From a bacterium YEK0313 (GTDB lineage: Bacteria > Pseudomonadota > Alphaproteobacteria > Rhizobiales > Phreatobacteraceae), in contig CCMO02000002.1 of NCBI GenBank assembly GCA_000751295.2, positions 1,187,806 through 1,219,805 of the forward strand: a DNA stretch of 32,000 bases. The letters are read 5' to 3'. Below the pieces are notes generated by a model. It was not told the origin of the DNA, ran no database searches, and saw nothing but the letters and a program-made list of their open reading frames with translations. Made by a program: the position numbers and the translations under genes. Below are positions 1,580 to 14,361 of the stretch, piece by piece; positions within the stretch are counted from its first letter, which is position 1; each line of letters begins with the position of its first letter.

Positions 1580-2947
1580 GTGAGCCAGCGTCCCCTGTGG
1601 CTATCTGCTTCCCGAAATCCGGAGAAAGTGAAGGAGAGGCTTGCCGAGATCGTGGCCTTTGCCCGGGCCAACTCTCCCTACTACCGCGATCTGTACAAGA
1701 ATCTGCCCGCGAGGGTCGAGGACTCCCGCCTGCTGCCCGTCACCGACAAGAAGACGCTCATGGCGAACTTCGATCGTTGGGTGACGGATCGCGAGGTCAC
1801 GATTGAGCGCGTGCGTAAGTTTATCGAAGATCCGAGCCTCGTCGGCGAAATGCTCCTCGGGAAATATCTGGTCGCCACGACCGCCGGCACGACGGGCAAA
1901 CCGGGCATCTTCATATTGGATGACAATCACATGCGAGGCGGGACATCCGGCCTCCGAGAAGCGTTCAGAACCTGGCTGTCGCTCGGGGACGTTGTACGGA
2001 TTGTTCTGCGCGGAGCGCGATTTGCGGCCCTGCACGCCACCGGCGGTCATTTCGTTTCGGTTACGGGTTTCACTCGGGCGCGGCGCTCCAGCCGGGTTTT
2101 GGCGAAACTCACTCGCGATTTCTCGGTGCACGCGCCGATAAGGGAACTCGTCAACGGCCTCAATGAGTTCCGTCCAGCCGTTGTCCTTGGCTACGCCTCT
2201 ACCGCCTCTCTGCTGGCTCGCGAGCAGGAACTTGGACGGCTGCGCATCAAGCCGGTGTTGTTGGTGGTTACGGCCGAGGGCCTTGCGGAAGAAGAGTACG
2301 GGCGGATCGCCAAGGCGTTCGGCGCGAAGGTCCGCAACACATGGGGCTCAACCGAGATCGGTGGCCCGACCTACAGCTGCACCGAGGGATGGCTCCACGT
2401 CGTCGGCGACTGGATCATCCTCGAGCCGGTGGATGCCGATTTCCGCCCCGTTTCGCCGGGCGAGGAGTCGGACACGGTGCTGGTGACCAATCTCGCCAAT
2501 CGCGTGCAGCCGATCCTGCGTTACGATCTCGGCGACCGCATCCTGCAGAGGCCGGACCCTTGTCCCTGCGGCAATCCCCTGCCGGCGATCCGCGTCCAGG
2601 GTCGCTCCGCCGAGGTTCTCCGCTTTCCGACCCAAGCCGGCAAAGACGTCTCGATACCGCCGCTCGCGTTCGAGATCGACCACGTGCCGGGAGTCGATCT
2701 GTCGCAAGTCGTGCAGACTGCGCCGACCAACTTGCGCGTACGCCTGCGCCTCGAGTCTGGTGCGGATCCGGACCAAGTCTGGAGGACGGTGCACGGCGAA
2801 TTGAAGCATTTGCTCGACAGCCACGAACTCCACGAGGTGACGATCGAGCGCGCCGAGGAGCCGCCGGAACAGTCGAGGGGCGGCAAGGTCAGGCAGGTCA
2901 TTCCGCTGGCTCAAGCAGAACCGCCGGCCGATCGAAAACAAGACTGA
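1580..2947 (+). CDS. PaaK / F390 synthetase-like adenylate-forming enzyme (ANL superfamily), full-length paralog
   Basis: 455 aa from GTG 1580 (AAGGAG at 1567-1572, 7-nt spacer). Motifs: ATTAGTTGKPGIF, WGSTEIGG, CPCGNPLPAIRVQGRSAEVL, GGKVRQVIPL. In-frame GTG 1457 would add a hydrophobic N-terminal segment (ILWSVAATAVAIAVAGAGLG). The track ORF start at 1001 overlaps the upstream gene and is not credible. Confidence 0.8.
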   Translation: MSQRPLWLSASRNPEKVKERLAEIVAFARANSPYYRDLYKNLPARVEDSRLLPVTDKKTLMANFDRWVTDREVTIERVRKFIEDPSLVGEMLLGKYLVATTAGTTGKPGIFILDDNHMRGGTSGLREAFRTWLSLGDVVRIVLRGARFAALHATGGHFVSVTGFTRARRSSRVLAKLTRDFSVHAPIRELVNGLNEFRPAVVLGYASTASLLAREQELGRLRIKPVLLVVTAEGLAEEEYGRIAKAFGAKVRNTWGSTEIGGPTYSCTEGWLHVVGDWIILEPVDADFRPVSPGEESDTVLVTNLANRVQPILRYDLGDRILQRPDPCPCGNPLPAIRVQGRSAEVLRFPTQAGKDVSIPPLAFEIDHVPGVDLSQVVQTAPTNLRVRLRLESGADPDQVWRTVHGELKHLLDSHELHEVTIERAEEPPEQSRGGKVRQVIPLAQAEPPADRKQD

Positions 2948-2960
2948 AAGGAGCGTGGTC

Positions 2961-3152
2961 ATGAAGGAAGTCGCCAAGTTCCTCGCTGGATTTGCCGGAA
3001 ATCAGCTCCTGACGCATGGGGTTTTGGCGATCAGCGGCACCCGGTTCAGTGTCTTCGGGATCGATTACACCCCTAAATTGAACACGACCGCCGCGATCGT
3101 CTGGGGCGTGCTCATGCTGCTACTGATTTACTATGCCTGGGTCAGGAGATGA
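2961..3152 (+). CDS. Small (63 aa) membrane protein, no recognisable family
   Basis: ATG 2961 lies 7 nt after AGGAG (2949-2953) and 13 nt after the stop of the upstream gene. It has a C-terminal hydrophobic helix, AAIVWGVLMLLLIYYAWV. It contains no Cys and a single His, so it is not an obvious metal binder. Confidence 0.5.
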   Translation: MKEVAKFLAGFAGNQLLTHGVLAISGTRFSVFGIDYTPKLNTTAAIVWGVLMLLLIYYAWVRR

Positions 3153-3196
3153 CGAGCACGATTCAGTACACGTCCATAGAAAGCCGGACATGAAAC

Positions 3197-3823
3197 ATGC
3201 CAGGTGACGAAGAGACCGAGATACGCCTCGATGCCCGTAATGTCGACGAACGACGCACGCTGCGCTGGGTACTCGGGATTAACTTCACGCAGGTCTTGGT
3301 AGCCGGTGCCGTCGGCATCCTGGCGGATTCCACGGGCCTGCTCGGTGCCGCACTCGACAATCTGGGGGACGCCGCAGTTTATGCGGTCAGTCTCTATGCG
3401 GTCGGCCGCACGGTCATTACCAAGGCACGCGCCGCAAACCTGTCCGGCATTCTTCTGATCCTCCTTGCCTTCGGTTTGCTTGTAGAAGTCTTGCGTCGGT
3501 TTTTCGCGGGAGCCGAGCCGATCGGGCTCGCGATGATCATCACGGCGCTCGCGAACGCGGCTACCAATTTGCTCTGCCTTCGCCTTTTGCGAGCGCATCG
3601 TGCGCATGGTGTGCACTTCAAGGCGTCGTGGATTTTTACAACGAACGACATGCTGGCCAATGCGGGCATCGTCCTTTCCGGTCTCTTGGTGATGTTTCTG
3701 AAGTCTCCGGTCCCCGATCTCGTGATCGGGGTTCTGATCGTCGGAATCGTCCTCAAAGGAGGGTGGGAGATTCTCAAAGAGGCGCGTGAAGCCCGCGATT
3801 CTGCACAGGGAAACAGAGGATGA
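3197..3823 (+). CDS. Cation diffusion facilitator (CDF)-type cation efflux protein, membrane domain only
   Basis: 208 aa with six hydrophobic helices. It has a CDF-like TM2, ADSTGLLGAALDNLGDAAVY (DxxxD), and a TM5, SWIFTTNDMLANAGIV. The protein ends soon after TM6, so it has no cytoplasmic C-terminal domain. Confidence 0.8.
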   Translation: MPGDEETEIRLDARNVDERRTLRWVLGINFTQVLVAGAVGILADSTGLLGAALDNLGDAAVYAVSLYAVGRTVITKARAANLSGILLILLAFGLLVEVLRRFFAGAEPIGLAMIITALANAATNLLCLRLLRAHRAHGVHFKASWIFTTNDMLANAGIVLSGLLVMFLKSPVPDLVIGVLIVGIVLKGGWEILKEAREARDSAQGNRG

Positions 3824-3907
3824 CCAAACGTCTCCTGTGGACCCATAACCAGGCGTTTGCCTCCAGGAGGCCGGAAGATCTCGCCGAACGGGATTTGGAG
3901 AGCCGCA

Positions 3908-5155
3908 ATGCCCCGGATTCCACGTGACAGAAGTCTGGACTCGACGATCGCCCTGATGGGTGATCCCTATAGATTTATCTGGAATCGAAGTCGGCGCTAT
4001 CGATCGGACCTGTTTGAAACGCGGCTTCTGCTGCGGAAGACCATCTGTATGACGGGCCCGGAAGCGGCCCAGCTGTTCTACGATCCGAGCCGCTTCGTAC
4101 GCACCGGTGCGATGCCTAAGGCGATCCAGAAGACGTTGCTCGGCGTAGGTGGCGTGCAGGGCCTCGACGACGACGCCCACCGGCATCGCAAGCAAATGTT
4201 CATGTCGCTGATGACACCCGAGCGGATCGAGCAGCTCATCCAGCTGACCGCGGCCGAGTGGCAGATCCGAGTGCTCAAGTGGGGATCGATGGACGAGGTC
4301 GTGCTCTATTCAGAGCTCCACTTGCTTCTGACACGCGCGGCCTGTGCCTGGGCCGGTGTGCCGCTCGCGGATTCAGAGGTCGACGCGCGGACCAAGGAGA
4401 TTGCCGCGTTGTTCGACCATGCGGGTTCGGTCGGACTTAGACACCTGTGGTCGCGGTGGGCCCGAAAACGGGCTGATCGTTGGATGGCGGATATCATCGA
4501 TCAGATCCGCGGTGGCCGTATCCGGCCGCCCGAACAGTCGGCTGCCCACATCATTGCGTGGCATCGGGATCTCAATGGTGAGCTGCTCACGCCTCAGATC
4601 GCCGCTGTCGAACTGATCAATGTGATCAGGCCGACGGTTGCCGTCTCGGTTTACATGATTTTCGTCGCCCACGCATTGCACGCGCATCCCAAAATTCGAG
4701 AGAGGCTTCAGGCCGACGACGACAGCTACTCCCGCTGTTTCGTCCAGGAGGTTCGCCGGTACTATCCTTTTTTCCCGGCAGTCGCTGCGCGAACGCGGCA
4801 GGCATTCGATTGGAACGGATACCAATTCCCCGCAGGTCGACGCGTTCTCCTCGATCTATACGGCACCAACCAGGACCCCCGAACTTGGGAGAGACCGGAG
4901 GAGTTCGAGCCCGAGCGATTCCGCCGGTGGAACGAGAGCCCATTCAATTTCATCCCGCAGGGCGGCGGAGACCACTACGCTAATCATCGCTGTCCTGGCG
5001 AATGGATTGCAATCGAGCTCATGAAGCTGACTGCGGATTTCCTCACGCGCTCCATGAGCTACGAGGTGCCGCAGCAAGACCTGGGCATTGACTGGTCGCG
5101 GCTGCCCGCATTGCCGCGTAGCCGGTTCGTGATCAGCAACGTCGGGGAACGCTGA
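3908..5155 (+). CDS. CYP152-family cytochrome P450 fatty-acid peroxygenase (P450 BSbeta / SPalpha / OleT family)
   Basis: It aligns along its whole length, from memory, with P450 BSbeta: PRDRSLDST...DPYRFI, HRHRKQMFMSLMTPE, VELINVIRPTVAVS (the Arg-Pro carboxylate anchor), FVQEVRRYYPFFP, LLDLYGTNQDPRTW and the heme ligand HRCPGEW. ATG 3908 follows GGAGAG (3896-3901). The track start at 3857 adds 17 unsupported residues. Confidence 0.9.
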   Translation: MPRIPRDRSLDSTIALMGDPYRFIWNRSRRYRSDLFETRLLLRKTICMTGPEAAQLFYDPSRFVRTGAMPKAIQKTLLGVGGVQGLDDDAHRHRKQMFMSLMTPERIEQLIQLTAAEWQIRVLKWGSMDEVVLYSELHLLLTRAACAWAGVPLADSEVDARTKEIAALFDHAGSVGLRHLWSRWARKRADRWMADIIDQIRGGRIRPPEQSAAHIIAWHRDLNGELLTPQIAAVELINVIRPTVAVSVYMIFVAHALHAHPKIRERLQADDDSYSRCFVQEVRRYYPFFPAVAARTRQAFDWNGYQFPAGRRVLLDLYGTNQDPRTWERPEEFEPERFRRWNESPFNFIPQGGGDHYANHRCPGEWIAIELMKLTADFLTRSMSYEVPQQDLGIDWSRLPALPRSRFVISNVGER

Positions 5156-5229
5156 AATGTCCCTGCATATGCGCCGGCAAGCTGAAGCACCAAAGTCCTG
5201 GCAGTCAAGCGACGGCAAGGAGAACCCGA

Positions 5230-5799
5230 ATGAGTAAACCTCCGATACCGAAAGACCTGCCTGCCGAGCTGGCACGCGTCCGCCGTCAGGCTGCGCTGTC
5301 TTTCTTGTTTTGCGCGCCCGTTCTTGGGGCGGCCGTCTGGTGGCTGCCACAGCAGTTCAACTTTCCGGCAGAAGTGGGCGAGCGGCTGGCGTTCGCCGCG
5401 CGGTCGAGCCTGCTCATCATGCTTTGGGTCTTGATTGGGGTCGGAATCATTGCGAGGCTCCGGCGCAAGTCAGCGCACGACACTGCGGGCTCTGCCTACG
5501 GCCCGCCGAGCGAGCGGCTAAGAGTTCCGCTGGCGTTCCTGCAAAACACGCTTGAGCAGGCGACGCTGGCGGCCTTTGCCGTCATGGCGCTCGCCACGGT
5601 CGAGGGCGAGGCGCCGCTCGCTTTCATAGTGGGAATGGTCGTGCTGTTCGGGATCGGGCGAATCACCTTCTTTCGTGGCTATCCTCATGGTTCGCCTGGC
5701 AGGGCGTTCGGCGTGGTGACGACTGCGTTGCCGATCATGGGCGCGTTTGCCTGGGTGATCTTCGACATAGGCGAGAGGCTGATCCGCGGCGTCGCCTAG
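5230..5799 (+). CDS. MAPEG-family membrane protein (glutathione transferase / eicosanoid-metabolism-like fold)
   Basis: 189 aa with four hydrophobic helices and MAPEG-like motifs FLQNTLEQ and RITFFRGY. The RBS AAGGAG sits just upstream of ATG 5230. Confidence 0.65.
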   Translation: MSKPPIPKDLPAELARVRRQAALSFLFCAPVLGAAVWWLPQQFNFPAEVGERLAFAARSSLLIMLWVLIGVGIIARLRRKSAHDTAGSAYGPPSERLRVPLAFLQNTLEQATLAAFAVMALATVEGEAPLAFIVGMVVLFGIGRITFFRGYPHGSPGRAFGVVTTALPIMGAFAWVIFDIGERLIRGVA

Positions 5800-5816
5800 T
5801 CGCCCGGCGTCGTCCC

Positions 5817-6587
5817 ATGAGCGCTTCTCTCTACGAGCCGATCAGCATTTACAAGGCCGTCGCGGCGAACATCGGCATCGTCGATGGACCATTCGAATAT
5901 CTGACGGTCGGTGGCGCAAGGTTGCCGCTTCCGTTCACTACTCGAATGACAGTCGTGCGCCTCGCGAACGGCGACCTCTTCCTCCACTCGCCGACTAAGT
6001 TTGACGATCGTCTAGCGGCGGAGTTGCAACAGTTGGGAGCACCTCGCCATCTCGTATCGCCCAACCAGTTCCACTACGCGCACATCGGCGAGTGGCAGAA
6101 GGCGTTTCCCGACGCGATTGCATGGGCGTCCCCGCGAGTTCGTCAAAGGGCCGCAGCGCGCGGAATATCAATCAACTTTTCGAGAGACCTGGAGGCAGTT
6201 CCGCCGGGAGAATGGCGAGGGGAAATCGACCAGACGCTTTTCCCCGGCGGCTATTTCAAGGAATTCATTTTCTTCCACGAGGCGTCCAAGACGCTGATCC
6301 TCACCGATACGATCATCAACATCGAGTTGGACAAGATCGGAGAGCCCTGGCGGACGGTCACGCGGCTCACCGGTATGTACCACCCGTACGGTCAGATCTT
6401 CTTTGGCATGCGGCTTCCACTTCTCCTGCAGCGGAGAAAGAGGGACGCGGCGCTGGCCAAGATCCGCTCGTGGCAGCCGCATCGAATCATTCTCAGCCAC
6501 GGACGCTGCTTTGAGGCACATGGAGGCGAGGTTATTCGACGGATATTCGGCAGTGCAGGCGCCAGCGGATGGCGATCGAGCTCATAA
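5817..6587 (+). CDS. DUF4336 domain protein (uncharacterised, metallo-beta-lactamase-like fold)
   Basis: 256 aa. The blocks MTVVRLANGDLFLHSP, RHLVSPNQFHYAHIGEW, FPDAIAWASP and FIFFHEASKTLILTDTIINIE match my recollection of DUF4336 conserved blocks. The start is 17 nt after the MAPEG stop. Confidence 0.65.
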   Translation: MSASLYEPISIYKAVAANIGIVDGPFEYLTVGGARLPLPFTTRMTVVRLANGDLFLHSPTKFDDRLAAELQQLGAPRHLVSPNQFHYAHIGEWQKAFPDAIAWASPRVRQRAAARGISINFSRDLEAVPPGEWRGEIDQTLFPGGYFKEFIFFHEASKTLILTDTIINIELDKIGEPWRTVTRLTGMYHPYGQIFFGMRLPLLLQRRKRDAALAKIRSWQPHRIILSHGRCFEAHGGEVIRRIFGSAGASGWRSSS

Positions 6588-6682
6588 GGTCGCCGGATGT
6601 ATTACCTTGCTACTGTGACACCGGCTCTTGCAAGCCACAATTCTGGCCGCGAACAGCGCCGCTCTTCCGGCACAGGGCCCGC

Positions 6683-6713
6683 TTGATTCTGTAGCGGCTA
6701 CAGAATGTAGGAT
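6683..6713 (+). promoter_or_regulatory. Second MerR-type metal-responsive promoter/operator, upstream of the P1B ATPase
   Basis: TTGATT (6683-6688), a 19-bp spacer, then TAGGAT (6708-6713). The dyad TTCTGTAG-CGG-CTACAGAA (6687-6705) lies in the spacer. It is almost identical to the site at 178-208. Confidence 0.7.
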
Positions 6714-6750
6714 CCCTAGTCAAGCCAGCGAGAATGTTGGGCAGTCAAGC

Positions 6751-9700
6751 ATGAACGGACGGCGATTCGAAGGATACATGATGAAGGTTGACACCATGAG
6801 GAGCACTGCGCGCCCGCTCCGCTTCAAAGTCGCCGGCTTGGATTGCCAGAATGAAATCCGCGCGCTTCGTGGGGCGGTGGGACCAATCGTCGGAGGCGAC
6901 GACAAGCTGTCCTTCGACACCAAGGCGGGCCTGATGGAGGTAGCGGTCGGGGATCCTACCCTGGTTATTGAAATAACCCGGGCGGTTGATGCCACGGGAA
7001 TGCGAGCGGACCTTCTGCCAGAGCGAACGCCGCAGTCTACATCGGCGCTGCTTTTTCAGATCGACGGGCTCGACTACAAGAACGAAGTCGCCGTGCTCAA
7101 ACGTGAGATCGGTCCGCTTGTAGGGGGCGAGGATCGGCTGGCATTCGATACCGCGAGACGGTTGATGACGGTCGCGCCGCAAAGCCAAGCGACGATCCAA
7201 GACATCGTTCGAGCCGTTGCGCCGACCGGCATGCGTGCCTCGCTTGTTGGAGATGGCGTGGACGAGGCGGTGCTCTACCGTGTGCACGGACTCGACTGCA
7301 AGAACGAGGTGGCGGCCCTGACGCGGGAGCTGGCACCGCTCGTCGGAGAGGACAATCTCGCGTTTGACACAGAACGCGGCATGATGACGGTGGGGCCTCA
7401 GAAGCGGGTCGTCTCTGATGTGATCAAGGAGGCCGTGGCTCGAGCGGGTATGCGCGCGGAACCATGGGCGCCGGAAACCGTGTCGTCTGCTTTCGCCAAC
7501 CCCACCTCCCAGCAGGAAGACTTGGCCTGCGGCTGTGGCGCAGAGGTGCAGGAGGTCTTCAGTCCGCCGATCCCGACCCACTTACCCGGTCAGGTCGTGT
7601 TTCGCATTCATGGCATGGATTGCGCCGACGAGATCGCGGCCTTGAAGCGCGAGGTCGGTCCGCTCGTCGGGGAAGACAAGCTCGCCTTTGATCTCCTCAA
7701 CGGCCGCATGTCGATCGACGTGACACCGGATTCCGTGCTCGAAGCAAGTATCGAGAAGGCGGTGGCTCGCGCCGGCCTGCGCGCGGAGCCGTGGATCGAA
7801 GGCGGCATTAGCGACGCCGCACAGATCGAAGAGCGCCGGAAGCGGGTGCAGTCGTGGCTCACAACCGCAAGCGGCGTGCTCACCGCGCTGGGCTTCGCGG
7901 TCCACGCTTGGCTCGGGGGCGGCGTCATAGCCGCTTTCGAGGCAGGCGAACATGCCAGGGGCACAACCCCGTTGCCGAGCATGGTTCTCTACGCGGTCGC
8001 CGTGCTCTGTGCCGCGCGCTACGTCGCGCCCAAGGCTTGGCTCGCGGCCAAGCGACTTCGCCCCGACATGAATCTGCTGATGATGGTTGCGGTCGCGGGC
8101 GCGATCGGTATCGGCGCCTGGTTCGAGGCCGCCACCGTTTCGTTCTTTTTTGCATTGGCGCTGGCGCTCGAGGCCTGGAGTCTTGGTCGCGCGCGCCGCG
8201 CGGTTGCCGCCCTCATGGAACTCGCCCCGCCGACAGCGCGCGTCAAGCTCGAAGACGGCTCCGAGCGCGACGTGGCGGCGGCCGAGGTGCGAGTCGGCGC
8301 GAGGATCATAATCCGGCCGGGAGACAAGGTGCCGCTCGACGGCCGGGTCGTCGCTGGCGAGAGCGAGGTCAACCAGGCACCGATCACCGGTGAAAGCGTC
8401 CCCGTGTTCAAGGCGGAAGGGGACGACGTATTTGCCGGGACCATCAACGGTGAGGGCGCAATTGAGGTCGTGACCACCAAAGCGGCGAATGACACGACGC
8501 TCGCCCAGATCATCCGCATGGTCGGTTCGGCGCAGAGCCGGCGCGCACCCAGTGAGCAATGGGTTGAGAAGTTCGCACGTGTCTACACGCCGGTCGTAAT
8601 GGTACTCGCCATTGCGATTTTTCTCGCTCCGCCCTTGCTTATGGGCGGCGCTTGGGACGTCTGGTTCTATCGGGCTCTCGTACTCCTCGTGATCGCTTGC
8701 CCCTGCGCTCTCGTGATTTCGACCCCGGTGACGATCGTGGCGGCCCTGGCCGGCGCGGCAAAGCAGGGGGTCCTGGTCAAGGGCGGCACCTATCTCGAGA
8801 CGCCTGCGCACCTCAAGGCGATTGCCTTGGACAAGACGGGCACGCTCACCGAAGGACGGCCGCAGGTTGTCGAGATCGTGCCGCTTGGAGGTCGCAGCGA
8901 AACTGAGCTCCTCGGTCTGGCCGCGGCCCTGGAGGCGCGCAGCGGGCATCCGATCGCTCGCGCCATCCTGGCGAAAGCCGCCGAGCTGAAGATCGCCGCC
9001 GAGCCTGCCGAGGCTGTCCAAGCCATCACTGGCCGAGGCGTCATCGGGCGAGTGGCCGGCCGCGAAATGTGGCTCGGCTCGCGCCGCTACCTTGAGGAGC
9101 GCGGCGTCAATTCTGCTGAGGTTCTGCAGCGGGCGGATGCGCTTTCGAGCGCCGGTCGCACCATCGTTGCGGTCGGCGATGGTCAGGACGTCTGGGGGCT
9201 CGTTGCTGTCGCCGATGCTGTCAGGCCGGAGGCCAAGGACATTGTCACGGCGCTGCACCGCGCCGGGATCGAACACGTTGTGATGCTCACCGGAGACAAT
9301 CGCGCGACAGCCGAGGCGATTGCGAAGCAGACAGGCATCGACGAGGTCCAGGCAGAACTGCTGCCGGGCGACAAGGTGGCGGCGGTCGAGGATTTGGTGC
9401 GGCGCTACGGATCGGTGGCGATGGTCGGCGACGGAGTCAATGACGCTCCCGCGATGGGGCGTGCCAATCTCGGCATCGCCATGGGTGCCATGGGCAGCGA
9501 CGCCGCCATTGAAACGGCCGATGTTGCGCTCATGTCGGACGATCTGTCGAAACTTCCTTGGCTTGTGCGCCATTCGCGGGCGACGCTCGCCGTCATCCGA
9601 CAGAACGTTGCCTTCTCGATCGCCGTGAAGTTCTTGTTCACAGGGCTGACAGTGATTGGTCTCGCATCGCTCTGGGGTGCTATCGCAGCGGACGTCGGCG

Positions 9701-9843
9701 CGTCTCTGCTGGTCGTTCTCAATGGCCTGCGCCTGCTCAATCGTGGTCAGACCAGCGGTCAAAAGGGTGGCCCATCCAGCGGTCTTGGCGTTTCGACGCA
9801 GCAGCGTCGTGCCCCGACCATCGCCGAAACGGTCCCGGCGTAG
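6751..9843 (+). CDS. Heavy-metal translocating P1B-2-type ATPase (Zn/Cd/Pb class; ZntA/CadA/PbrA-like) with four N-terminal HMA-like domains
   Basis: Motifs: PITGESVP (TGES), ACPCALVISTP (CPC), DKTGTLT, SGHPIA, GDGVNDAPA. A Lys in SIAVK and ADVGASLLVVLN (DxGx7N) give the P1B-2 transmembrane signature. The start is uncertain: in-frame ATGs lie at 6751, 6778, 6781 and 6796. The track start at 6628 lies upstream of the promoter, so it is rejected. Confidence 0.95.
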   Translation: MNGRRFEGYMMKVDTMRSTARPLRFKVAGLDCQNEIRALRGAVGPIVGGDDKLSFDTKAGLMEVAVGDPTLVIEITRAVDATGMRADLLPERTPQSTSALLFQIDGLDYKNEVAVLKREIGPLVGGEDRLAFDTARRLMTVAPQSQATIQDIVRAVAPTGMRASLVGDGVDEAVLYRVHGLDCKNEVAALTRELAPLVGEDNLAFDTERGMMTVGPQKRVVSDVIKEAVARAGMRAEPWAPETVSSAFANPTSQQEDLACGCGAEVQEVFSPPIPTHLPGQVVFRIHGMDCADEIAALKREVGPLVGEDKLAFDLLNGRMSIDVTPDSVLEASIEKAVARAGLRAEPWIEGGISDAAQIEERRKRVQSWLTTASGVLTALGFAVHAWLGGGVIAAFEAGEHARGTTPLPSMVLYAVAVLCAARYVAPKAWLAAKRLRPDMNLLMMVAVAGAIGIGAWFEAATVSFFFALALALEAWSLGRARRAVAALMELAPPTARVKLEDGSERDVAAAEVRVGARIIIRPGDKVPLDGRVVAGESEVNQAPITGESVPVFKAEGDDVFAGTINGEGAIEVVTTKAANDTTLAQIIRMVGSAQSRRAPSEQWVEKFARVYTPVVMVLAIAIFLAPPLLMGGAWDVWFYRALVLLVIACPCALVISTPVTIVAALAGAAKQGVLVKGGTYLETPAHLKAIALDKTGTLTEGRPQVVEIVPLGGRSETELLGLAAALEARSGHPIARAILAKAAELKIAAEPAEAVQAITGRGVIGRVAGREMWLGSRRYLEERGVNSAEVLQRADALSSAGRTIVAVGDGQDVWGLVAVADAVRPEAKDIVTALHRAGIEHVVMLTGDNRATAEAIAKQTGIDEVQAELLPGDKVAAVEDLVRRYGSVAMVGDGVNDAPAMGRANLGIAMGAMGSDAAIETADVALMSDDLSKLPWLVRHSRATLAVIRQNVAFSIAVKFLFTGLTVIGLASLWGAIAADVGASLLVVLNGLRLLNRGQTSGQKGGPSSGLGVSTQQRRAPTIAETVPA
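6817..7794 (+). repeat. Four tandem HMA-like domain repeats inside the ATPase N-terminus (protein-level repeat)
   Basis: Repeat units lie at nt 6817-7017, 7048-7248, 7270-7467 and 7594-7794. Each has the pattern (F/Y)x(V/I)xG(L/M)D(C/Y)xxE(I/V)xxL...GPLVG(G)ED(K/R/N)L(A/S)FD...GMRA. A CGCG motif at 7528-7539 sits in the linker before repeat 4. Confidence 0.8.
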
Positions 9844-9916
9844 ATCGAGGTTGCGTCAGCGCAACCCAACCCAAGCACACCGGTCGCGGAGAATGGCCGA
9901 AAAAGAAAGGACTTGA

Positions 9917-10447
9917 TTGAGCGTGGCGTATCCGAGGCTGATCCGACGAGCTACATTGGCATGTGGTGCTTTAGCTGCCGCCCTTGCGGTCGATTTTGTT
10001 ACGAAATGGCTGATCCTCAACGTCGTAATGGTGCCGCCGCGGACGATCGAGATCGCGCCATTTTTCAACCTGACCCTCGGTTTCAATACGGGTGTCAGTT
10101 TCGGAATGTTCCGTGAGCTCTTCCTCGATCGCCCATTGATGCTCGCCGGAATCAAGATGTTGATCGTCGCCGGCCTTCTCCTCTGGGCCATGAGAACGCC
10201 AAAGCCATTGGAGACGGTTGGTCTCGGCCTGATCGCCGGCGGTGCGATGGGCAATATTGTGGACCGGATAAGTCAAGGTGCCGTGACCGATTTCCTCGAT
10301 TTCCATGTCGGAAGATGGCACTGGCCGGCCTTCAACATGGCGGACACGATGATAACGATCGGCGTCGTCTTGCTGATCGCCGGCTCCTTTTGGCCGGTGA
10401 GGTCGATGACTCCCGTTCAGAAGCGGCCGAGCGCCGCGGAGCACTGA
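9917..10447 (+). CDS. lspA: Lipoprotein signal peptidase (signal peptidase II)
   Basis: 176 aa with four TM helices. LspA blocks are present: FNLTLGFNTGVSFG, GGAMGNIVDR, VTDFLDF and the catalytic-Asp block WPAFNMADTMITIG. The start is TTG 9917, with GTG 9923 as an alternative. Confidence 0.9.
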   Translation: MSVAYPRLIRRATLACGALAAALAVDFVTKWLILNVVMVPPRTIEIAPFFNLTLGFNTGVSFGMFRELFLDRPLMLAGIKMLIVAGLLLWAMRTPKPLETVGLGLIAGGAMGNIVDRISQGAVTDFLDFHVGRWHWPAFNMADTMITIGVVLLIAGSFWPVRSMTPVQKRPSAAEH

Positions 10448-10472
10448 CGATGGCGCTCATCAATGTTTTTTT
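10429..10472 (+). terminator. Weak candidate intrinsic terminator after lspA
   Basis: GAGCGCC (10429-10435) pairs with GGCGCTC (10452-10458), followed by a run of seven T (10466-10472). A T run is conspicuous in this GC-rich DNA. However, the loop is long (16 nt) and the stem is 7 nt away from the T run. Confidence 0.25.
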
Positions 10473-10557
10473 GCTCTCACCCTGCGGGCTGCCGCTCGTT
10501 CGGGCTACCTATCCTACGGCTTGTGCATACGGAGCAACTCGCCCGTTGGCCCTCGTA

Positions 10558-10757
10558 ATGCATGATCAGCAAGCCAAGAAGCGCGCACTACTGTTCTTGA
10601 ATCGGCGAAGCGGCAACGGTGGTGATCGCGCGCCGGATGCCGCTGTCCAGCAACTTGAGGCCGGCGGATTGTTTTGATGCGCGGGTCATGCATTCAAGCA
10701 GAAGATGTCACCCGCGAGATCAAACGCCATGCGCACGTGGTGTGGCACTCCGGCTGA
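10558..10757 (+). pseudogene. Decayed N-terminal fragment of a diacylglycerol-kinase-family (YegS-like) lipid kinase
   Basis: ATG 10558 reads MHDQQAKKRALLFLNRRSGNGGDRAPDAAVQQLEAGGLF then a stop (10675-10677). The +2 frame continues MRGSCIQAEDVTREIKRHAHVVWHSG then a stop (10755-10757). The KRALLxxNxxSGxG...L(E/x)AGG pattern is the start of DAGK-type lipid kinases. The fragment is frameshifted and truncated before the GGDGT motif. Confidence 0.4.
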
Positions 10758-12124: not shown

Positions 12125-13339
12125 TCAGCCTCCGTAGGGCTCGAGGACGAGGTCGCGGGTGACGATGACGCGAACCGGAAAGCCGGGCCGGATGGTCAGC
12201 GTCGGCGCGACGTTCAACTGGCGGCGGACGATCTGCTGGCCGGCGTCGTTGATCGTGTCCTGACCGCCATTGCGGATAGCCTGGATCAGCCGATCGTCGT
12301 CGTTGGTGGCAAGCTCGGCGCCGATGCTCAGCAGCGTGGAAAGACCCGCCGCCTTGGCGAGATCCCACCAGTGATAGTCGACACCGTCCTGGAGACCGGC
12401 ATAGCCCTCGGCGTCAGCGCCGAGCTGGCGCTCGAGGACGATCGAGCGGCCATTGGGGAAGATCAGGCGGTTCCAGACCAGCAGCACGCGGCTCTGGCCG
12501 AACTGAACATTGTTGTCGTACTGGCCGATGATGCGCGTGCCTTGGGGTACGAGCAGGATGCGCCCCGTCGGGCTGTCATAGATATTCTCCGTCACCTGCG
12601 CGGTGATCTGGCCCGGAAGGTCGGATCGGATGCCGGTGATCAGCGCGGCAGAGATGACGGCGCCGGCTTGCAGAATGTTGGGCGATGCCGGCGCCGCTAT
12701 GCGGTCTGGCGCGACGGTGCGCCGATCGGCAGCGGCGTTGAGGAAGGCGAGCTGCCGATCCTGCGCGGATGGCGTGGCGGGCTGCGGAGCCAGGCCCAGA
12801 CTCGCCAGGTCAGGTGTGGGCTGCGGCGCAACCGCCGCCGAGCCGGGGCTCGGCGATGACATCGGGCGATTTTCCGTGCCGGCGAAGAGCCTGGCTGTGC
12901 GCGCGGCCTCGATCTCCTGCAGCCGTCGCTGCTCCTCGGCGCTGAGGCTGGGATTGGGTGCCGCGACGCCAGGGGGCACGGGCTGTCCGCGGTTCTGCGC
13001 GCCAAGGATCGGCCGCCCAAGATCGCCGGGTAGTGGCGGACCGAGCTGGGGAATGCCGCTGTAGTCGCGCGGTAACCCCGCGAGACCGTCGGCGGTCGAG
13101 CGGTTCTCGGTCGAATAGAGTTCCTCAGCGGGCCTGCCCCCGTCGCGGGTCTGGAGCGCGTAGATCAACGCACCGCCCAATCCCACGCTTGCGACGAGAC
13201 CGATGCCGGCGAGCGCCTTGCGCGAGAGCCGCGTGACACGCGGCGGTTCGGCGCGGAGCCGCATCGGGGCGGCCGCGTCGGCGGCTGCTCCGGTCAGCGG
13301 CGCGTCTTCTTCTTTTTGTTCGCTTGCGGGCTCGCTCAC
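12125..13339 (-). CDS. trbI: Conjugal transfer protein TrbI (VirB10 homolog)
   Basis: GTG 13339 overlaps the trbG stop (a GTGA overlap). Features: an N-terminal TM helix (LAGIGLVASVGLGGALIY), a Pro-rich linker and a conserved C-terminal VirB10 domain (GAVISAALITGIRSDLPGQITAQV...LLVWNRLIFPNG...PTLTIRPGFPVRVIV). The longer track ORF (to 13591) runs through trbG. Confidence 0.9.
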   Translation of the reverse strand: MSEPASEQKEEDAPLTGAAADAAAPMRLRAEPPRVTRLSRKALAGIGLVASVGLGGALIYALQTRDGGRPAEELYSTENRSTADGLAGLPRDYSGIPQLGPPLPGDLGRPILGAQNRGQPVPPGVAAPNPSLSAEEQRRLQEIEAARTARLFAGTENRPMSSPSPGSAAVAPQPTPDLASLGLAPQPATPSAQDRQLAFLNAAADRRTVAPDRIAAPASPNILQAGAVISAALITGIRSDLPGQITAQVTENIYDSPTGRILLVPQGTRIIGQYDNNVQFGQSRVLLVWNRLIFPNGRSIVLERQLGADAEGYAGLQDGVDYHWWDLAKAAGLSTLLSIGAELATNDDDRLIQAIRNGGQDTINDAGQQIVRRQLNVAPTLTIRPGFPVRVIVTRDLVLEPYGG

Positions 13340-14361
13340 GACGTCGGCCTCCCATCGGTGCGGGTGATCCGGACGCGCTTCTGGCGGTCGCCAGCGCCGA
13401 AGCGCAGTTCGGCGGCCGCAAACAGACGGTCGACGACCATGTAGTTGCCACGGACTCGGTAGTTGACCAGTTCGGAGGTGTTGCCTTCGGGTCCGACCAC
13501 GAACAGGGGTGGCATCTCGCCCTGGCCGATGCCGCGCGGGAATTCGATGAACACCTGCCGTCCGTCGTCGTAGGCGCGGAGCGGCCGCCACGGCGCGCGA
13601 TCGCCCTCGATCGCATAGCGGAAGTTGATGTTGGCGAGGTCGACACCGGTCGCGACCGGGCGTGCGGCTTCGGCCTGCGCGTTCTGCCGCCGAAGCGCGA
13701 TGAGCTGGTCCTGCGGATATTGCCAGGAAACCGAGGCCATATAGGTGCGCTCGGTCGAGCGCAGCTCCATGTGATAGGTGCGCAGGTTCGTGTTGATGAC
13801 GAGGTTGGTCATCAGATCGGACCGCGTCGGCTTCACCAGGATGTGGACCTGCGTGCTTGTCCCGGAGCCGCTTTGCGTGTCGCCGATGATCCAGCGGACG
13901 GTATCGCCGGCTGCGACCGGACCGGAGCCGACGAGCTGCTCGCCTGGCTGCAGGGCGATGTCGGTGATCTGACCGACGGCGGTATAGACCTGATAGAGTG
14001 CGCCGGCCGTGAAGGGATAGACTTGCATGGCGTTGATGAAGCCGTCCCGAACGGGCTGGACCCGAGCGGCGGCGTTGGCCTGGTTGACGCGGGCGGCCGG
14101 GTCGGTGGGCTCGGGCGTGCGATGCGACGGCTCGACAGGCTTCATCTGTCCGGGTAGCGGCAAGGGGCGCGGCAGCTCGACGACCTGCACCGGCGCCGGC
14201 GGATCGGCCTGGAGCGTTGCCGGCGCGGCATCGTCGTAGGAGATTTCAGGGGGTCTCTGCGTCGTGGCGCAGCCCGCCAAGGCGCTCGCTGAAATCAGCA
14301 AAGCCGCAAATGTGGAAGTGCGAGAAGCCGGATTTCCGGCTTTACGGAAAGACGGCTTCAT
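13336..14361 (-). CDS. trbG: P-type conjugative transfer protein TrbG (VirB9 homolog), lipoprotein
   Basis: 341 aa. The signal peptide has a lipobox, SALAGC. VirB9/TrbG blocks are present (QVYPFTAGALYQVYT, VRWIIGDT, NLRTYHMEL, VNYRVRGNYMVVDRLF). ATG 14361 overlaps the trbF stop. Confidence 0.95.
   Translation of the reverse strand: MKPSFRKAGNPASRTSTFAALLISASALAGCATTQRPPEISYDDAAPATLQADPPAPVQVVELPRPLPLPGQMKPVEPSHRTPEPTDPAARVNQANAAARVQPVRDGFINAMQVYPFTAGALYQVYTAVGQITDIALQPGEQLVGSGPVAAGDTVRWIIGDTQSGSGTSTQVHILVKPTRSDLMTNLVINTNLRTYHMELRSTERTYMASVSWQYPQDQLIALRRQNAQAEAARPVATGVDLANINFRYAIEGDRAPWRPLRAYDDGRQVFIEFPRGIGQGEMPPLFVVGPEGNTSELVNYRVRGNYMVVDRLFAAAELRFGAGDRQKRVRITRTDGRPTS

Follow-up and report, generated by a model that had tools for sequence, protein, structure and literature searches.

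Fatty-acid peroxygenases of the P450 family CYP152 use H2O2 as their sole oxidant, and an Arg-Pro pair in the I helix, which replaces the usual acid-alcohol pair, anchors the carboxylate of the substrate (PMC5818669). The position occupied by Gln84 in P450 SPalpha corresponds to Gln85 in BSbeta and to His85 in OleT (PMC5818669). Despite heavy use of these enzymes as biocatalysts, their physiological role is unsettled, and SPalpha has usually been assumed to serve in making sphingolipids. We describe here a predicted CYP152 gene in a 32,000-nucleotide stretch of contig CCMO02000002.1 from the bacterium YEK0313 (Rhizobiales, Phreatobacteraceae; positions 1,187,806 to 1,219,805 of the forward strand), referred to below as the window. 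An earlier note on this DNA had placed the P450 gene, together with genes for a MAPEG membrane protein and a DUF4336 protein, inside a metal-controlled operon, and had proposed that the three form a peroxide-consuming lipid-oxidation or lipid-repair trio. Comparison with relatives suggests a different emphasis: it is the P450, and with it an entire branch of CYP152, that appears to be tied to metal export.

The P450 gene lies on the + strand (open reading frame 3857/3908-5155), with its start at ATG 3908 downstream of GGAGAG, and encodes a 415-aa protein that Pfam (p450, PF00067, E 4.4e-17), NCBIfam and alignment to structure 3AWM identify as a predicted H2O2-dependent fatty-acid alpha-hydroxylase of the CYP152B, or SPalpha-like, type. 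Among solved structures the closest is P450 SPalpha (3AWM, E 4.4e-164, residues 1-412); BSbeta (1IZO, E 2.8e-132) and OleT (4L40, E 2.3e-94) are more distant. Judged by alignment, the nearest characterised enzyme is the alpha-hydroxylase SPalpha and not BSbeta. The motifs ELINVIRPTVAV (Arg-Pro), HRCPGEW (Cys ligand) and GVGGVQGLDDDAH (Gln) align to SPalpha R241-P242, C361 and Q84, respectively. The heme ligand Cys361 is invariant across 75 distinct sequences, and 40 distinct branch members share, without exception, Q84, R241, P242, A245, F287, F288 and C361 (SPalpha numbering); the window P450 and most branch members also have L78, and F169 is a branch-specific Phe. The window P450 thus retains all catalytic and alpha-selectivity residues (L78, A245, F288), the roles of the latter being taken from the mutant entries 3AWQ (L78F), 3VTJ (A245H) and 3AWP and from PMC5818669. 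The gene is intact in all copies and under purifying selection (dN/dS 0.12-0.22). Because a Gln, aligned to SPalpha Q84, occupies the position of BSbeta Gln85, a hydroxylase rather than a decarboxylase is expected, in agreement with the Gln-type assignment made in the earlier note; family knowledge and the alignment together lead us to expect H2O2-driven 2-hydroxylation of free fatty acids.

The neighbourhoods of P450 relatives were compared in 80 genome loci, chosen by similarity to the query and searched with the window proteins by tblastn; these loci carry L-numbers below, with coordinates counted within each locus. Genes for a cation diffusion facilitator (CDF), the lipoprotein signal peptidase LspA and a metal-transporting ATPase flank nearly all P450 relatives of at least 64% identity. 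Neighbouring open reading frames (ORFs) were clustered and their families identified by Pfam, and neighbours within 6 kb of the P450 were counted in the 29 representatives left after dereplication at 90% identity. CDF and LspA genes were each found near 20 of the 29 (18 on the same strand as the P450 in both cases), P1B-ATPase genes near 12 (all 12 on the same strand), CcdA near 9 (8) and an F390-synthetase-like ligase near 7 (all 7). Regulator genes were mostly on the other strand, with MerR near 13 and ArsR near 12 representatives, and 2 on the same strand for each. No p-value is attached to these counts, since relatedness and mobility make the copies non-independent.

At least seven gene orders occur among branch members. 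The commonest has an ArsR gene diverging from CDF-(CcdA)-LspA-P450, next to a MerR gene diverging from a P1B-ATPase gene. In architecture B the CDF-CcdA(DsbD_TM)-LspA-P450 series, with divergent ArsR, is followed by MerR on the opposite strand and then P1B-ATPase-PCuAC-SCO; architectures C and D are variants of B with a Na_Ca_ex protein. LspA lies directly 5′ of the P450, with a gap of 16-160 nt, in most loci of types B, C, D and F, the last being simply CDF-LspA-P450. Architecture E, from Rhodobacterales, reads CDF-LspA-TRAP DctQM-P450, and architecture G (CzcB-CzcA-x-P450-ligase) was found in one planctomycete and one gammaproteobacterium. The window represents architecture A, in which MerR diverges from F390-like ligase-(small membrane ORF)-short CDF-P450-[MAPEG-[DUF4336]]; a second MerR-type promoter and ATPase-LspA come next. 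Annotated examples of the linkage include Ancylobacter plasmid pC, Marinovum pMaD6 and the chromosome of Sphingopyxis alaskensis.

In a maximum-likelihood tree of 83 sequences (quick search), all 41 metal-linked P450 rows fell within a single clade of 48 rows (SH-aLRT 97). The metal label required 5 changes on this tree, compared with ~27 in shuffles, and none of 500 shuffles gave a number as low. No metal linkage was found outside the clade among the cyanobacterial, Paenibacillus, Pseudomonas and Chloroflexi relatives on the tree. An even sample of alphaproteobacterial species gave a CYP152 in 7 of 400. One of the seven belongs to the branch (65% identity) and has ArsR diverging from CDF-LspA-P450; tblastn detected no CDF, LspA, P1B-ATPase, ArsR, MerR or CcdA gene around the other six (at most 54% identity; five with ~8 kb flanks). 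The linkage holds across saturated synonymous divergence, two unrelated families of sensor and many gene orders, and these comparisons argue that the CYP152B-like branch is, as a rule, built into metal-export clusters under ArsR or MerR regulators. We found no published report of a link between CYP152, fatty-acid alpha-hydroxylases or MAPEG proteins and metal-resistance genes in the literature searched, which lay mostly outside subscription journals.

Two further arrangements were observed directly 5′ of the P450. Rhodobacterales islands (L115 3989-5873; L057, L073 and L075) carry a TRAP-type DctQ/DctM pair between LspA and P450; this is a carboxylate transporter type, and no binding-protein gene was seen alongside. 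On the chromosome of Sphingopyxis alaskensis RB2256, an 862-aa fusion of an NAD-dependent epimerase/dehydratase with VKOR (L128 4343-6931) immediately precedes the P450, and both genes lie inside a Cus/MerR/CDF/MerT island.

The gene for SPalpha itself is found in a comparable setting. A plasmid gene of Sphingomonas paucimobilis FDAARGOS_908 (L114 9001-10248, equivalent to NZ_CP065669.1 296186-297433) encodes a protein identical to crystallised SPalpha at 411 of 411 residues, and the window P450 is 58.7% identical to its product by tblastn. This gene has a CopA-type P-type ATPase gene with CueR on one side and MerR-MerT on the other; copCD, CDF-FTR1 and CzcCBA are close by, and the whole is a region of copper, mercury, zinc and cadmium resistance genes. 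In the literature searched, mostly outside subscription journals, no paper remarks on this setting.

The first 10.5 kb of the window is a single + strand block with a G+C content of 0.58-0.64, followed by a Trb conjugation backbone with a G+C content of 0.66-0.70 (TrbI at 12125-13591). At its left edge, on the - strand, is the 5′ part of a MerR-family (CadR/PbrR-like) regulator gene (1-170), which extends past the window start; the full gene encodes 154 aa (L085 9706-10170) and matches Pfam MerR_1 (2.6e-20) and MerR-DNA-bind (4.9e-17). A putative MerR-type operator/promoter (promoter 1, 178-208, + strand), with TTGATT, the dyad CTGTAG-N3-CTACAG and a long spacer, heads the P450-containing unit. 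The CadR/PbrR-style operator pattern TTGAYTCTRTAGNNNCTAYAG (TTGATTCTGTAG-N3-CTACAG) occurs twice in the window, at 178-198 and 6683-6703, compared with 0 expected by chance. The operator is kept in L006, L008, L011 and L108-110, and in L108 one copy directly heads a small transmembrane ORF followed by CDF-P450-MAPEG-DUF4336. Relatives carry a third copy, 3′ of CcdA and before the LysR gene (L108 12492-12512, L011 17369-17389); the window holds only two copies when up to 2 mismatches are allowed.

Promoter 1 is followed, all on the + strand, by two genes for F390-synthetase/PaaK-like adenylate-forming enzymes, copy 1 at 229-1425 (NCBIfam TIGR02304, 2e-24, under the cut-off) and copy 2 at 1457-2947 (TIGR02304, 2.7e-23); the start of copy 2 is uncertain, GTG 1457 being the first in-frame candidate past copy 1. 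A small predicted membrane ORF of 63 aa (2962-3152), with a homologous 65-aa ORF before the CDF gene in L108 and L109, precedes a short CDF gene (3197-3823; 208 aa; Pfam Cation_efflux 8.2e-15, residues 26-196) whose product has no C-terminal cytoplasmic domain. The same tail-less CDF stands immediately 5′ of the P450 in L005, L006, L008, L010, L011, L108 and L130. After the P450 come the genes for MAPEG (5230-5799, 189 aa) and DUF4336 (5817-6587, 256 aa). The second putative MerR-type operator/promoter (promoter 2, 6683-6713, + strand) heads a Zn/Cd/Pb-type P1B ATPase with N-terminal HMA-like repeats (6751-9843; NCBIfam TIGR01525 6.9e-179, TIGR01512 1e-152) and the island copy of LspA (9917-10447; Pfam Peptidase_A8 1.1e-34), after which lies a LysR gene. 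Since TTG 6628 is upstream of promoter 2, the ATPase probably starts at ATG 6751 or later. The block thus has features of MerR-controlled Cd/Zn/Pb efflux operons of the pbr/cad/znt type: a MerR-family gene diverging from a long-spacer promoter that contains a dyad operator, and a P1B-2 ATPase with an accessory signal peptidase II.

The intergenic gaps are 84 nt for CDF-P450, 74 nt for P450-MAPEG and 17 nt for MAPEG-DUF4336. The last two had been given in the earlier note, which had the three reading frames, their coordinates and the motifs correct as well. It had also seen no promoter or terminator between the trio and the upstream CDF gene, and consensus scans bear this out: they predict neither a sigma-70-like promoter in 2800-10600 nor a + strand terminator-like site in 3100-7467. 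No sign of an internal terminator or structured RNA was found in the CDF-P450, P450-MAPEG and DUF4336-ATPase spacers, which fold no better than shuffles (z -0.22, +1.57 and -0.02). A single operon running from the MerR gene to LspA was rejected because of the second putative MerR-type promoter at 6683-6713. The trio would therefore belong to the upstream unit headed by promoter 1, with ATPase-LspA predicted to be under its own promoter.

Some features of the surrounding DNA touch on LspA. Besides the island copy, the YEK0313 genome has an intact housekeeping LspA gene on contig 1 and, just upstream of the MerR gene, a broken one. The latter, an island-type gene with a frameshift (L085 9272-9718; C2:1187155-1187560 in the genome, just upstream of the window), is preceded farther upstream in L085 by genes for DUF302, a metallo-beta-lactamase-fold protein, rhodanese-YgaP, TauE and a full-length CDF. 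On the other side, window positions 10576-10741 show 78% identity to the region of a DAGK/YegS-like lipid-kinase gene found 3′ of LspA in L093-type islands, where that gene is followed by BacA/UppP. The window appears to retain a mere remnant of a pbrB-like tail, consisting of the lipid-kinase piece, with no PbrB/UppP.

Conservation of P450, MAPEG and DUF4336 as a trio was not borne out. Near the 29 dereplicated P450 relatives, MAPEG occurred in 4 (3 on the same strand) and DUF4336 in 1 (same strand). Of the 80 loci, just four have MAPEG beside the P450, namely L006 (where it is on the opposite strand), L009, L010 and L011, and just one, L011, has DUF4336 there. Identity look-ups added L108-110 and L130-131, which belong to the same island lineage as the window and share the order CzcCBA-ligase-CDF-P450-MAPEG-DUF4336-ATPase-LspA-CcdA-LysR-Trb; in Sphingopyxis alaskensis the P450 is convergent with MAPEG-MerR. 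Adjacency of MAPEG and P450 recurs, both in tandem and convergently, only within the sub-branch of the window, and all three genes are found together in a single island lineage.

Blastn comparison with the closest islands, L005 and L008 (P450 95% and 84% identical), showed that homology stops at 5153-5156, at the P450 stop codon, and restarts at 6679-6682, at operator 2. This break argues that MAPEG and DUF4336 constitute a 1.5-kb indel (5157-6678, + strand) relative to those islands, reaching exactly from the P450 stop codon to operator 2. In L010 a deletion has left a 5′ remnant of DUF4336, and the widespread L093-type island has the order ligase-MAPEG-ATPase-LspA, with neither CDF nor P450. 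Synonymous divergence from L108 and L130 is unequal across the unit, with dS of 1.25-1.37 for the P450 compared with 0.29-0.41 for MAPEG and DUF4336. The window unit is therefore apparently a recombinant, in which the P450 allele would have been exchanged and the gene order kept. Megablast of 2900-10500 against plasmids detected no plasmid with the trio; the matches were to the ATPase-LspA part (78-82% identity), with isolated matches to the P450 and DUF4336. Taken together, the indel, the non-metal contexts of DUF4336 kin and the presence of MAPEG kin in metal islands that have no P450 suggest modular add-ons within one transcription unit rather than an obligate set. What stands of the earlier proposal that lipid and peroxide chemistry is tied to metal efflux is the MerR-headed unit with its CDF gene and the conserved linkage of the P450 to metal genes; the trio as the carrier of that link does not.

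The MAPEG protein matches PF01124 (E 3e-10; 40.7 bits against a cut-off of 23.4; profile positions 2-128 of 129). Its AlphaFold2 (AF2) model (pLDDT 93.7) has five helices, corresponding to the MAPEG four-helix core and one N-terminal helix. The 38 best Foldseek matches in the Protein Data Bank (PDB) were all mPGES-1, LTC4 synthase or MGST2, with TM(target) scores of 0.63-0.79, a probability of 1.00 and weak E-values of 4e-3 to 0.09; PDB searches with the single sequence and with a profile found no sequence-level match to any solved MAPEG protein. Residues R78, N106, E109, R144, Y151 and R158 are invariant in 28 relatives, and the Arg, Asn, Glu and Tyr residues among them may correspond to glutathione-binding or catalytic residues of mPGES-1 and LTC4S. 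MAPEG enzymes include lipid-hydroperoxide peroxidases. This MAPEG type is rare, being present in 5 of 400 sampled species, own genome excluded. Relatives at 87, 62, 58, 53 and 52% identity are all in metal-efflux neighbourhoods with no P450; in many cases a NadE-like gene precedes them and LspA, CDF, Cus/Czc pumps or MerR are close by. A relative at 46% identity lies outside such a neighbourhood. MAPEG thus accompanies metal islands independently of the P450, and the model points to a predicted enzyme of glutathione-transferase/peroxidase fold. Across MAPEG and DUF4336, dN/dS is 0.15-0.24, in keeping with purifying selection.

The NadE-like gene (CN_hydrolase + NAD_synthase, 633-723 aa) was observed directly 5′ of MAPEG in two metal-island lineages (L100 and L104-L107) and 274 nt upstream of it in a third (L125). 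In L123 and L124 it is ~5 kb from MAPEG, and a methyltransferase gene lies directly upstream of MAPEG.

The DUF4336 protein matches PF14234 (E 7.5e-12; 45.5 bits against a cut-off of 28.5) over profile positions 19-166 of 321 only. Its 1662 relatives are mostly 75-84% identical and come from soil Rhizobiales and metagenomes; close relatives are chromosomal, with non-metal contexts in those inspected, and relatives at 77-84% identity were found in non-metal contexts on metagenome contigs and a Sinorhizobium plasmid. The island type (~90% identity) is restricted to one island lineage. A PDB sequence search gave nothing usable. The AF2 model is of moderate confidence (pLDDT 71.7), and its top Foldseek matches are metallo-beta-lactamases of the IMP, GIM and VIM types (E 2e-8, TM 0.57-0.67), with an alpha-beta/beta-alpha sandwich. 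The metal motif is degenerate (NQFHYAH instead of HxHxDH), and assignment as a beta-lactamase or glyoxalase II was rejected on the absence of HxHxDH. H57, H78, H86, H154, D164 and H228 are invariant, and dN/dS (0.15-0.18) indicates purifying selection. On the model, DUF4336 is a predicted metallo-beta-lactamase-fold protein, probably recruited recently from a chromosomal family.

The reading that we favour, with moderate confidence, is that the P450 carries out metal-induced, H2O2-driven 2-hydroxylation of fatty acids as part of envelope protection. The anatomy of the unit suggests that an excess of Cd/Zn/Pb-type metal would activate MerR at promoter 1, leading to production of P450, MAPEG and DUF4336, while the CDF protein would export the cation. 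The P450 would bind free fatty acids through the Arg-Pro pair and use H2O2 directly to give (S)-2-hydroxy fatty acids. More tentatively, this might remove two membrane-damaging species, free fatty acids and H2O2, and supply hydroxylated acyl chains to the envelope, and the enzyme might act beside other envelope genes of the island, namely the extra LspA, CcdA and MAPEG, and in relatives UppP and the lipid kinase. Several points weigh against this proposal. Co-transcription and metal induction are predictions from the operators, the gaps and the lack of a predicted terminator, and a metal-protective effect of 2-hydroxy fatty acids is hypothetical. CYP152 enzymes act on free acids only, and incorporation into lipids would therefore need an activating enzyme. 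The P450 scores 592.7 bits against the NCBIfam CYP152 CypC equivalog, just below the cut-off of 600. The branch members L038, L046/47 and L069 lack, within 6 kb, every metal gene searched by tblastn, and the sole match in L064 is ArsR-like and ~4 kb away. Finally, the islands are mosaic and gather accessory genes, and many loci have spread by transfer, which makes the counts a tally of non-independent events.

That mosaic nature is the starting point for regarding P450, MAPEG and DUF4336 as passengers on metal islands with no functional tie to metals. The MAPEG+DUF4336 indel, the DUF4336 remnant in L010 and a P450 allele of other origin (dS 1.25-1.37 compared with 0.29-0.41) would all fit such hitch-hiking, as would the non-metal contexts of DUF4336 relatives at 77-84% identity and the many loci at which one element recurs almost unchanged in different hosts. 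It is harder to reconcile with a P450 linkage that outlasts saturation of synonymous sites and holds to ~55% P450 identity, in at least seven gene orders and under regulators of two unrelated families, the genes being mostly co-directional and closely spaced, and that is absent from all other CYP152 branches sampled. All P450 copies are moreover intact and under purifying selection, and the MAPEG subfamily is metal-linked down to 52% identity. We consider hitch-hiking unlikely for the three genes together, but plausible for DUF4336 alone, where the chances are about evenly balanced. A P450 kept solely to consume H2O2 under metal-driven oxidative stress, with fatty acids as sacrificial substrates and a hydroxy acid that has no role, is in our view rather improbable. 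Thiol and redox genes (CcdA, SCO, thioredoxin-like proteins and MerA-like reductases) are common neighbours, the MAPEG family is generally known to include peroxidases of lipid hydroperoxides, and H2O2 is the only oxidant of CYP152 enzymes (PMC5818669); however, catalases and peroxiredoxins are far faster sinks. Across the branch, the residues of alpha-selectivity (F169, A245, F288 and, in most members, L78) are conserved, which suggests that the product or substrate matters, and genes that handle carboxylates, TRAP DctQM in type E and the F390-like acid-activating enzyme, recur beside the P450.

At the opposite extreme, CYP152B enzymes including SPalpha might be dedicated metal-stress enzymes whose product is itself the point, with (S)-2-hydroxy fatty acids serving as membrane-anchored alpha-hydroxy-carboxylate ligands or feeding an undescribed lipid-based metal-handling pathway beside the efflux pumps. 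In this pathway, the F390-like enzyme might activate the acid, MAPEG join it to glutathione and DUF4336 release it, by analogy with the action of glyoxalase II on S-2-hydroxyacyl-glutathione. We regard this as quite unlikely. Housekeeping lipid biosynthesis, in which 2-hydroxy acyl chains are made for sphingolipids or other constitutive lipids and the position of the gene is irrelevant, is very improbable. 2-Hydroxy fatty acids are a general trait of sphingomonads (Takeuchi and Hiraishi, as cited in PMC10002949). Yet in a sample of 201 species from the family of L043, a Sphingomonas genome (genomes G401-G600), 4 had any CYP152 and 2 had the SPalpha type, and an SPalpha-type enzyme therefore cannot be the general source of these acids in the group. 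SPalpha appears in the review literature as the enzyme that 2-hydroxylates fatty acids in Sphingomonas, where 2-hydroxylated sphingolipids are discussed (PMC10002949), which would favour a housekeeping role; its gene is nevertheless plasmid-borne and within a metal island, and CYP152 occurs in only 7 of 400 alphaproteobacterial species. As to the chemistry itself, formation of terminal alkenes by an OleT-like decarboxylase is extremely unlikely. The P450 shares its family with OleT (5M0O/4L40, E ~1e-94), but it has Gln, not His, at the position of OleT His85 and is far nearer to SPalpha (E 4e-164), and this candidate was rejected on the Gln residue and the distance.

If metal-induced fatty-acid 2-hydroxylation is the function of this P450, the findings would connect metal stress with membrane lipids in a way not described before. 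A whole branch of CYP152, including the gene of SPalpha, appears to be wired into ArsR- or MerR-controlled metal-export clusters, and it is absent from ~99% of sampled Sphingomonadaceae species; the physiological role of these enzymes thereby becomes testable. More broadly, the results fit an emerging picture in which metal islands of Alphaproteobacteria bring together genes concerned with lipids and the envelope, namely LspA, CcdA, UppP, the lipid kinase, MAPEG, the F390-like ligase and CYP152.

Among known systems, pbr/cad-type determinants share with the window a MerR sensor, a long-spacer promoter with a dyad operator, a P1B-2 ATPase, an additional signal peptidase II and a CDF. Such determinants include cadR-cadA-cadC(lspA) with cdfX on CMGI-1 of Cupriavidus metallidurans CH34, and pbr with PbrR-PbrA-PbrB/C. 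Unlike the pbr type, the window has no PbrB/UppP and only the lipid-kinase remnant, and pbr/cad-type lead-cadmium-zinc determinants are not known to contain a P450, MAPEG or DUF4336 gene, nor did any paper in the literature searched connect them. The window MAPEG protein is like mPGES-1, LTC4 synthase and MGST2 in its above-cut-off Pfam MAPEG match and in the superposition of its predicted four-helix core, and differs from them in its extra N-terminal helix and in belonging to a subfamily tied to bacterial metal islands. With BSbeta (CYP152A1, CypC/YbdT, of Bacillus subtilis) and OleT (CYP152L1), the window P450 shares its family and, by prediction, peroxide-shunt chemistry, and with BSbeta also the Gln at the Gln85 position; both enzymes are more distant from it, and the sampled Firmicute CYP152 loci (Paenibacillus) had none of the metal genes searched by tblastn. 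With SPalpha (CYP152B1, 3AWM), the likeness extends over the full length and includes the Arg-Pro pair, the Cys ligand, Gln84, Leu78, Ala245, Phe287/288 and Phe169. The two enzymes fall in the same branch of the tree and both genes lie in metal islands, that of the window after a tail-less CDF in a MerR unit of Cd/Zn/Pb type, and that of SPalpha between CopA-CueR and MerR-MerT.

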